Assembly (NCBI GenBank): GCA_963657885.1
Contig: CAVKNZ010000005.1
Location: 1-56,385 of the forward strand
Source: Bacteroidaceae bacterium
Lineage (GTDB): Bacteria > Bacillota_I > Bacilli_A > RFN20 > CAG-826
Length of the DNA stretch: 56,385 bases
Reading direction: 5' to 3'
This document shows positions 45,895 through 46,096 of the stretch, in pieces (the first letter of the stretch is position 1; each line of letters starts with the position of its first letter). The position numbers and the translations under genes were made by a program. The notes under the pieces are model-generated. The model made no database searches, was not told the DNA's origin, and saw only the letters and a list, made by a program, of their open reading frames with translations.

Positions 45895-46062
45895 TTACAT
45901 TCCTCCTTAAGTTGCCATAAAGAGGAATTAGAAAACTCCCATCGTTACGACAGGAGCAATAAAGCATATATATCATTCCCATCGTTCAAGCTTTGGCACC
46001 CAACATAACTTGGGTTGTCGGTGGATCACAGGGCTTGTCCCTAACCACTCTCTTTATGGTTG
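45895..46062 (-). promoter_or_regulatory. SAM-I (S-box)-like riboswitch leader
   Basis: The minus-strand RNA is ACCAUAAAGAGAGUGGUUAGGGACAAGCCCUGUGAUCCACCGACAACCCAAGUUAUGUUGGGUGCCAAAG…. It carries the conserved S-box blocks in order: AGAGAG, AGGGA, GCCC, UGA, CAACC, a P3 hairpin and GGUGCCAAA. CCAUAAAGAG (5') is exactly complementary to CUCUUUAUGG (3'). There is also a terminator-like hairpin CUCCUGUCG-UAA-CGAUGGGAG followed by UUUUC. Confidence 0.75.
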
Positions 46063-46067
46063 CAATT

Positions 46068-46096
46068 ATTATATCGATTTATTCACTAAATTTCAA
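46068..46096 (-). promoter_or_regulatory. Sigma-A-type promoter TTGAAA-17 nt-TATAAT driving the S-box operon
   Basis: The -35 is the complement of 46091-46096 and the -10 the complement of 46068-46073. The predicted TSS is a few nt before the riboswitch P1. Confidence 0.7.

Follow-up and report, generated by a model that had tools for sequence, protein, structure and literature searches.

On its minus strand a 56-kb stretch of contig CAVKNZ010000005.1 (analyzed here as a whole and called the window, whose coordinates are used throughout) carries a leader RNA that we judge, with good confidence from its sequence, to be a real riboswitch of the S-adenosylmethionine (SAM) type I, or S-box, family. 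It is built without helix P4 and would act as an OFF switch on both transcription and translation of the minus-strand operon behind it (Table 1). Our observations concern sequence, structure, covariation, and the conservation of individual elements in this leader and its relatives. An initial annotation of the stretch had proposed a SAM-I-type aptamer with its own promoter; every leader string that it listed was recovered on the minus strand, and the proposal is borne out by the match to the Rfam model RF00162 and by an 11/12 promoter match.

When both strands of the window were searched with 4227 Rfam families, RF00162 (SAM-I) was the sole match at E ≤ 0.1 (37.2 bits, E 7.9e-05, at 46062-45976 on the minus strand), and no second riboswitch was found in the window at these permissive thresholds. 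Within clan CL00012, the best model for the RNA is SAM-I and not SAM-I/IV (RF01725), and the internal loop of P2 is present. The alignment covers model positions 1-108 with all P4 positions deleted; 3 nt stand between the J3/4 strand of the pseudoknot and P1, and this absence of P4 had been missed by the initial annotation. The core conserved in the Rfam model is matched in the window (the A-U/U-A of P1, AAGAG in J1/2, CAACC, and GGUGC), and the core blocks are invariant or nearly so in an alignment of 128 distinct related aptamers (A2). In SAM-I crystal structures, these positions include nucleotides that contact SAM. Because the core positions that match the model are unchanged, SAM is the most likely ligand. 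A candidate K-turn site in P2 has an invariant GA on the 3' strand (columns 39-40) and mostly GA on the 5' strand, which reads UA in the subtype of the window. For the 3' strand of P1, the initial annotation had offered two candidates that we do not retain: the proximal CUUUAU is present at 45964-45959 but is not kept in L001, L066, L076, and L152, the leaders nearest to that of the window, and the distal CUCUUUAUGG is conserved, but the strand that aligns as P1 is the AUGG within the first copy of the 9-mer ACGAUGGGA.

Related leaders were collected with the pattern CCATAAAGAG-N9-10-GACAAGCNC-N25-55-GCTTG, which leaves the sequence 3' of GCTTG free and which matched at least 120 contigs from metagenomes besides 5 from IMG/VR; the counts of related leaders given here (126-137 leaders, 128 aptamers) rest on the pattern matches listed. 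The P4-less leader precedes more than 100 mostly uncharacterized genes in other uncultured bacteria. After GCUUG, exactly 3 nt and then [AGT]ATGG follow in 129 of 137 leaders, and because this region was free in the pattern and is nevertheless fixed, loss of P4 is a property of the subgroup. The sole leader of the set with a P4-like hairpin (UGCCGC-UGU-GCGGCA, between GCUUG and ACGAUGG) is that of L042 (5451-5557, minus strand), which may be an intermediate between the classical and the P4-less forms.

Across alignment A2, 95.8% of the cells that belong to the named structure are paired, compared with 89.3% in shuffled alignments (0 of 500 reached the observed value) and 24-42% with slid partners. 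The covariation score is 0.188, compared with 0.082 for shuffles (again reached by 0 of 500) and at most 0.070 for slid partners, and 8 pairs changed on both sides. Covariation is strong in helices P2, P2b, and P3. Once the two length variants of P2a are put in register, each of its pairs forms in 126-128 of the 128 aptamers, with 2-7 pair types per position (4-7 at the central three). At pair 26-34, 70 aptamers have AT and 58 have GC, pair 47-82 is AT, GC, or CG and always paired, and the CAAG/CUUG pairing of the pseudoknot is present in all 128.

The expression platform is built around the repeated 9-mer. The 5' arm of the terminator hairpin (45956-45947) pairs alternatively with the first copy, and this pairing is, as predicted from the sequence, the classical S-box antiterminator. 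The antiterminator duplex reaches –12.8 kcal/mol with its own partner, compared with –9.97 kcal/mol when partners are swapped between leaders (standard deviation of means 0.15). At the position beside GAUGG, U opposite A (27) and C opposite G (19) dominate and covary, and a compensatory change of ACG/CGU to AUG/CAU separates the antiterminators of the window and L152. A terminator-like hairpin with a U-run was found in 101 of 126 related leaders. The antiterminator/terminator pair that the initial annotation had drawn from the repeated 9-mer is thus upheld by the duplex energies and by these hairpins. Constrained folds of the full leader place the OFF state (aptamer helices, terminator, and a helix between the Shine–Dalgarno sequence (SD) and its complement, the anti-SD) at –47.5 kcal/mol and the ON state (antiterminator and CCAUAAAGAG:CUCUUUAUGG) at –47.2 kcal/mol; with the leader cut at the U-tract, the values are –33.8 kcal/mol for the terminator state and –34.1 kcal/mol for the antiterminator state. 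In such models, a near-isoenergetic balance in the ligand-free RNA is what would be expected of a switch that is tipped by its ligand. Two successive terminator-like hairpins were seen in L030 and in one leader of L057, a locus that has two leader copies within 4 kb (3798-3889 and 7589-7680) with different genes behind each.

Over its 10 nt, the distal element CUCUUUAUGG is perfectly complementary to the 5' end of the aptamer (CCAUAAAGAG, element X). It was found with at most one edit in 65 of 126 leaders (1.35 expected) and with at most two edits in 103 (about 25 expected), usually 3' of the terminator. In local minimum free energy folds, the SD pairs with the anti-SD in 80 of 90 leaders (median z –3.3), and the flanks of this helix covary (GCGCUCUU/AGGAGUGU, GUACCUCU/GGAGGUAC, and UGCCCUCU/GGGAGGGCA); the SD region of related leaders often reads AUAAGGAG. 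The earlier suggestion that an anti-SD beside the distal element adds translational to transcriptional control is supported by these 80 SD helices. Because of its conservation, the anti-SD helix, and the covarying flanks, the distal element appears able to pair with either the 5' CCAUAAAGAG or the SD, and it fits a switching partner of the SD better than a strand of P1, since its pairing would run over AAGAG of J1/2 and it sits past the U-tract. On this basis we assign to the aptamer's own 5' strand the probable role of an anti-anti-SD.

In the promoter scan, TTGAAA/TATAAT is the top-scoring site of the region (11/12), and the predicted transcription start is at ~46062-46060, 1-3 nt ahead of P1. 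Neither scan is significant when taken alone (6 promoter sites compared with 6.3 expected, and 1 terminator compared with 0.6 expected). The positions of promoter and terminator are kept across homologous leaders, and a –10-like box ends 7-8 nt 5' of CCAU in 55 of 129 related leaders. Upstream, the promoter is adjoined by two divergent open reading frames (ORFs) of 219 and 466 aa (46323-48384, plus strand) without a Pfam or NCBIfam match.

We propose the following scheme, in which SAM as ligand, the order of folding, and the regulatory outcome are what we infer. The sigma-70-type promoter would start the transcript directly ahead of the P4-less aptamer. When SAM is bound, the short P1 (CCAU/AUGG), J1/2, and the pseudoknot between the P2 loop and J3/4 would be locked, and the first ACGAUGGGA would therefore be barred from pairing with UCCUGUCGU. 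UCCUGUCG would then pair with the second copy to form the terminator, and transcription would stop at the U-tract. In transcripts that escape, the anti-SD/anti-X AUUCCUCUUUAUGG would pair with the SD and block translation. Without SAM, the first 9-mer would form the antiterminator, and the freed 5' CCAUAAAGAG would pair with CUCUUUAUGG over 10 bp, taking the anti-SD off the SD and keeping the aptamer unfolded. The operon (p177, MoxR, p148, VWA/HExxH, MetK-like, and possibly on to 36403-36369) would be on only at low SAM.

Several observations weigh against this scheme. The SAM-I match of the window (E 7.9e-05), at 37.2 bits, lies below the RF00162 gathering score of 44.4 bits, and the search at gathering level gave no match to any Rfam family over the whole window. 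The four-way junction with P4 that defines SAM-I is missing. P1 in the window is CCAU/AUGG only, 4 bp with an A·G mismatch on either side, and its extension beyond these pairs does no better than permuted controls; pair 48-81 of P3 is an A·C mismatch. P1, the pseudoknot, and element X show no covariation because the search pattern fixed them. Finally, when the truncated RNA is folded, the second AUGG can serve as the partner of CCAU, and the antiterminator takes the position of P4; because of this pairing, either AUGG could close the aptamer in read-through RNA. On sequence grounds, we place the RNA in the SAM-I family by homology and by predicted mechanism, although it lacks two formal features of that family, a score at gathering level and P4.

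In a rival reading, the distal CUCUUUAUGG is the true 3' strand of P1 and the terminator hairpin is P4, giving a four-way-junction SAM-I aptamer with a long J3/4 insertion and translational control. The perfect and strongly conserved complementarity of the distal strand to the 5' end would be accounted for in this way, the hairpin does stand at the place of P4, and a partial CCAUA/UAUGG pairing would make a 5-bp P1 that leaves AAGAG free. Full pairing, however, would cover the J1/2 AAGAG that aligns to Rfam-conserved positions, and 23 of 126 leaders, including that of the MoxR cassette in L010, have no distal element at up to two edits yet keep GCUUG-3 nt-NAUGG. The flanks of the distal element covary with the SD and not with the 5' end, and, because it lies 3' of the U-tract, the element cannot inform termination. 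We regard this reading as improbable. Still less probable, in our view, is that the aptamer is a specificity variant for a ligand other than SAM, such as S-adenosylhomocysteine or the product of the MetK-like enzyme. The Rfam-conserved core positions are unchanged, canonical metK genes that score strongly in Pfam also lie behind the same P4-less leader, and in other phyla the cassette of this operon is paired with canonical SAM-I/IV matches and with one sub-threshold SAM-II match; set against these are the unusual build of the aptamer (no P4, a 4-bp P1, and A·G replacing the junction-proximal C-G), the unusual gene associations behind the leader, which such a variant would explain, and the loss from the MetK-like enzyme of residues that bind methionine in E. 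coli MetK.

We give the least weight to a decaying, nonfunctional S-box copy carried by a mobile cassette. The features that could be read as decay are the score under the gathering threshold, the weak P1, and the A·C mismatch in P3, but the A·C mismatch recurs in 14 of 128 aptamers and a 4-bp P1 flanked by A·G is the norm of the family (122 of 128 on the junction side and 69 of 128 on the outer side). L152 and L001 keep the architecture with compensatory changes, and the platform elements of the window are intact and energetically balanced. The P4-less OFF switch acting at two levels is the reading that we prefer.

Compared with SAM-I riboswitches (RF00162; B. subtilis yitJ and metI, and T. 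tengcongensis metF), the window leader shares P1, P2 with its internal loop, the pseudoknot between the P2 loop and J3/4, P3, the CAACC/GGUGC core, AAGAG in J1/2, and an OFF logic that would run through the P1 3' strand, antiterminator, and terminator. It differs in that P4 is replaced by 3 nt, P1 is only CCAU/AUGG with A·G at the junction, CAAG/CUUG and CCAUAAAGAG are fixed across related leaders, and there is a translational layer in which the alternative partner of the anti-SD would be the 5' strand of the aptamer; the leader family differs further in that its genes lie mostly outside Met/Cys metabolism. SAM-I/IV (RF01725) and SAM-IV (RF00634), of the same clan, likewise have no P4 in the junction. 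The SAM-I/IV variants have no internal loop in P2 (PMC2864571), whereas the window RNA has this loop and scores best on SAM-I. Leaders that join a terminator to SD sequestration have both of their parts represented here. In known translational SAM-I members, the ribosome-binding site lies inside the P1 3' strand (Barrick and Breaker, PMC2258182); in the window leader, by contrast, a separate anti-SD would be competed for by the P1 5' strand and J1/2, which mimic the SD (AAAGAG compared with AAGGAG). No account of an anti-SD that competes with the P1 5' strand and J1/2 was found in a literature search of incomplete coverage.

The first gene of the operon, p177, has one homolog (58% identity) among 5.8e9 proteins. 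It lies in L152 (155-688), which shares the order leader-p177-MoxR, and in both loci the stop of the first gene overlaps the start of MoxR (ATG 45368 in the window, as placed by the gene caller). A 177-aa ORF of the window (604-1137) was considered as a paralog of p177 and rejected, as it shows no similarity. The MetK-like protein matches MetK structures in the PDB over its full length (2e-30) and scores 138.3 bits on the equivalog model TIGR01034, below the cutoff of 309.4. The gene metK is a classical S-box target. The initial annotation had held that the leader does not govern a classical methionine regulon gene; this stands for the first gene, an orphan ORF, but the operon does contain a MetK homolog, albeit a divergent one. 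Read from its TTG start, the MetK-like protein had no exact match on record; the gene caller uses a later ATG. Two canonical MetKs were aligned with copies of the enzyme encoded in cassettes of Firmicutes and Bacteroidota. The Firmicutes-type copies keep GHPD, the lysine of PDxK, GGPxGDxGLxGxK, and GGGAxxGKDPxKxD, and the Bacteroidota-type copies keep most motifs, with variations that include GGS for GGP and GKDLSHID. The ATP/triphosphate motifs are retained, and every cassette copy has lost the gating loop, the glutamate in GEIT, and GAG in the motif GAGDQG; in E. coli MetK, these residues contact methionine. Because these residues are lost, the substrate of the enzyme may differ. No strong minus-strand terminator was found before 36403-36369, and, since the next one stands there, the unit possibly continues through an FtsK/EssC-like ATPase and further ORFs.

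A search with the MoxR protein, limited to one genome per species, returned 25 loci (L001-L025), and the order MoxR, VWA-HExxH, MetK-like is kept wherever the locus sequence suffices. Only in Firmicutes-type loci (L001-L010 and L012) was a homolog of p148 (~140 aa) detected, encoded between MoxR and the VWA protein. A SAM riboswitch match above threshold or a clear leader homolog stands just upstream of MoxR in 21 of the 23 loci with upstream sequence. SAM-I scores 46.9-59.8 bits, above its gathering score, in L002, L004, L006-L010, L013, and L014, and 41.2 bits in L001 and 39.5 bits in L003, below the gathering score like the window; the SAM-I sets are loci of Bacilli, Clostridia, and Acholeplasma. 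SAM-I/IV (42-69 bits) precedes the cassette in Bacteroidota, Ignavibacteria, one Verrucomicrobia locus, and one Chloroflexi locus, and a gammaproteobacterial locus has a sub-threshold SAM-II (RF00521) match (34.5 compared with 36 bits, E 2.9e-4). Because these different classes are seen ahead of the cassette, its link to SAM appears to be maintained while the class of riboswitch swaps; several SAM riboswitch classes in this place are expected for a SAM-repressed unit. The leader abuts MoxR in L001-L010, and an extra 177-aa ORF intervenes in the window. In L011 (Verrucomicrobia), ~380 nt lie between the SAM-I/IV aptamer (256-387) and MoxR (768), which leaves room for a small ORF. A VWA-MetK fusion in L008 was considered and rejected, as a stop codon separates adjacent same-frame ORFs.

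MoxR and VWA proteins are known as partner pairs (CbbQ/CbbO, NorQ/NorD, and RavA/ViaA), and MoxR-vWA ternary systems stand behind PF20030. As in these pairs, an AAA_5 MoxR lies beside a VWA-like protein (the VWA_CoxE match is weak, 21.6 compared with 26.4 bits) and the same operon encodes a candidate client enzyme; in contrast to them, the candidate client is MetK-like, the VWA-like protein has an HExxH motif, and the unit stands under SAM riboswitches. No account of a MoxR/VWA unit with a MetK-like client under SAM riboswitches was found in the literature, for which coverage was incomplete. PADLOC gave no defense-system assignment for the cassette, and megablast of the operon matched no phage or plasmid record.

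Beyond the cassette, BLAST sorts the first ORFs downstream of 130 leaders into 59 clusters (at least 59 unrelated families), and about two-thirds have no Pfam match. Pfam assigned 14 to the FGase family, 4 to MetK, 4 to PriA, and 3 to ECF S-components; three of the four PriA leaders have a MetK-like gene ~5 kb downstream. Assignments made once include a SAM hydroxide adenosyltransferase, a C5 DNA methylase, and an ADP-ribosylglycohydrolase. Of the 27 families found, none of the 25 that are listed is a classical Met/Cys biosynthesis enzyme. The FGase proteins (PF05013, the N-formylglutamate-amidohydrolase family) stand at leaders that include L034, L038, L042, L053, L062, L068, L091, L093, and L097, and this family is not known to belong to SAM or methionine regulons. 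The neighborhoods are hypervariable (903 ORFs in 655 clusters). Recurrent neighbors are ADP-ribosylglycohydrolases (11 loci), soluble FtsH-like AAA+M41 proteins (7 loci), and Macro-domain, HD_4, C5 DNA methylase, and GmrSD proteins. The 29-56 kb half of the window is similar in character, with Fic, WYL, and SHOCT in addition to an ADP-ribosylglycohydrolase and two FtsH-like proteins. The two FtsH-like proteins (AAA and peptidase M41; 29922-31160 and 51267-52679, minus strand) are ~410-470 aa long, shorter than canonical FtsH, and their family adjoins the leader in 7 other loci. The ADP-ribosylglycohydrolase gene lies at 53823-54671 (minus strand); in 11 other loci, including L003 and L004, a member of this family is encoded on the strand of the leader and immediately upstream of it. 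Two paralogous ~445-aa proteins without a Pfam match (36426-37778 and 38373-39701, minus strand) belong to a family with further members close to leaders in five other loci, such as L004 (1226-2548, 59% identity).

Two readings of this setting were considered and rejected. GC content is ~31-36% throughout, without a step, and there are no tRNA genes, which speaks against a compositional island; the word "island" is apt for gene content only. For a phage origin, there are only the 5 IMG/VR contigs with the leader, no virion proteins lie downstream, and one first ORF has weak head-protein matches. A possible but doubtful extension is that the P4-less leader is a SAM-depletion alarm that Firmicutes of the gut and rumen use in gene islands of a mobile or "conflict" kind, which have adopted it. 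A fall in SAM, possibly brought about by phage or toxin attack (for example through SAM-degrading enzymes or ATP depletion), would then switch on otherwise silent accessory genes. Among these would be DNA methyltransferases, ADP-ribosyl hydrolases, many small uncharacterized proteins, and the MoxR/VWA/MetK-like unit, which would serve as an adenosyltransferase system held in reserve or resistant to inhibitors. If this were true, the convergent placement of SAM-I and SAM-I/IV (and perhaps SAM-II) ahead of the cassette would mark a widespread, uncharacterized SAM-linked system. In a literature search of incomplete coverage we found no account of the link between cassette and riboswitch, a P4-less SAM-I subgroup, an SD-mimic platform, or SAM riboswitches on mobile or defense genes.

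Table 1. Predicted features of the leader and operon in the window.
Feature	Position	Strand	Basis
–35 hexamer TTGAAA	46096-46091	-	11/12 match, 17-nt spacer
–10 hexamer TATAAT	46073-46068	-	same 11/12 site
Putative SAM-I-type aptamer without P4 (P1, P2 with internal loop, P3, pseudoknot)	46062..45976	-	RF00162 match
Element X, CCAUAAAGAG: P1 5' strand CCAU (46059-46056) and J1/2 AAAGAG	46059-46050	-	string match and Rfam alignment
P2: GUGG...AGGGACAAGCCC...UGUGAU...CCAC		-	string match
Pseudoknot, P2-loop strand CAAG	46037-46034	-	complements CUUG 45990-45987
P3: ACCCAA-GUUAUG-UUGGGU	46015-45998	-	string match
GGUGCCAAAGCUUG, directly 3' of P3		-	string match
GGUGCCAAA, core string listed after P3		-	string match
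Pseudoknot, J3/4 strand CUUG (inside GCUUG 45991-45987)	45990-45987	-	
First ACGAUGGGA, putative antiterminator 5' arm, holds P1 3' strand	45985-45977	-	
P1 3' strand AUGG	45982-45979	-	inside first ACGAUGGGA, Rfam alignment
UCCUGUCGU, between the two 9-mers	45955-45947	-	
Second ACGAUGGGA	45945-45937 (ACGAUGGGA(G) 45945-45936)	-	
Putative terminator hairpin CUCCUGUCG-UAA-CGAUGGGAG	45957-45935	-	terminator scan
U-tract UUUUC	45935-45931	-	
Anti-SD AUUCCUC	45928-45922	-	complements GAGGAAU in SD
AUUCCUCUUUAUGG, overlap of anti-SD and anti-X	45928-45915	-	
Distal element (anti-X) CUCUUUAUGG	45924-45915	-	complements element X
SD region AAGGAGGAAU	45908-45899	-	
Start ATG	45894	-	
p177, first gene, 177 aa, without family match	45361-45894	-	
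MoxR-type AAA+ ATPase	43944-45392	-	AAA_5 E 3.8e-12, 46.8 bits
p148, 148-aa cassette protein, without family match	43519-43965	-	
466-aa protein with HExxH motif (HELYHIILGH)	42122-43522	-	VWA_CoxE 21.6 bits, under cutoff 26.4
Divergent MetK (SAM synthetase) homolog	41023-42135	-	three Pfam MetK domains above cutoffs

The riboswitch call in itself is ordinary; what merits follow-up is the stripped-down architecture, the predicted two-level platform, and, above all, the unexplained low-SAM regulon. More than 130 sequences would represent natural SAM-I aptamers that do without P4 and have a P1 of 4 bp, and would offer a minimal scaffold for structural and engineering work. In the platform, an aptamer 5' strand that serves as an SD mimic would couple the terminator decision to a later translational one in a compact design. 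The MoxR/VWA/MetK-like cassette appears to be held under SAM control by differing riboswitch classes across phyla, which points to biology that is not understood, and a large set of uncharacterized, hypervariable genes is predicted to be on only at low SAM. Associations between riboswitches and genes have historically been a reliable route to gene function, and the SAM leader would provide a concrete handle on the uncharacterized genes behind it.

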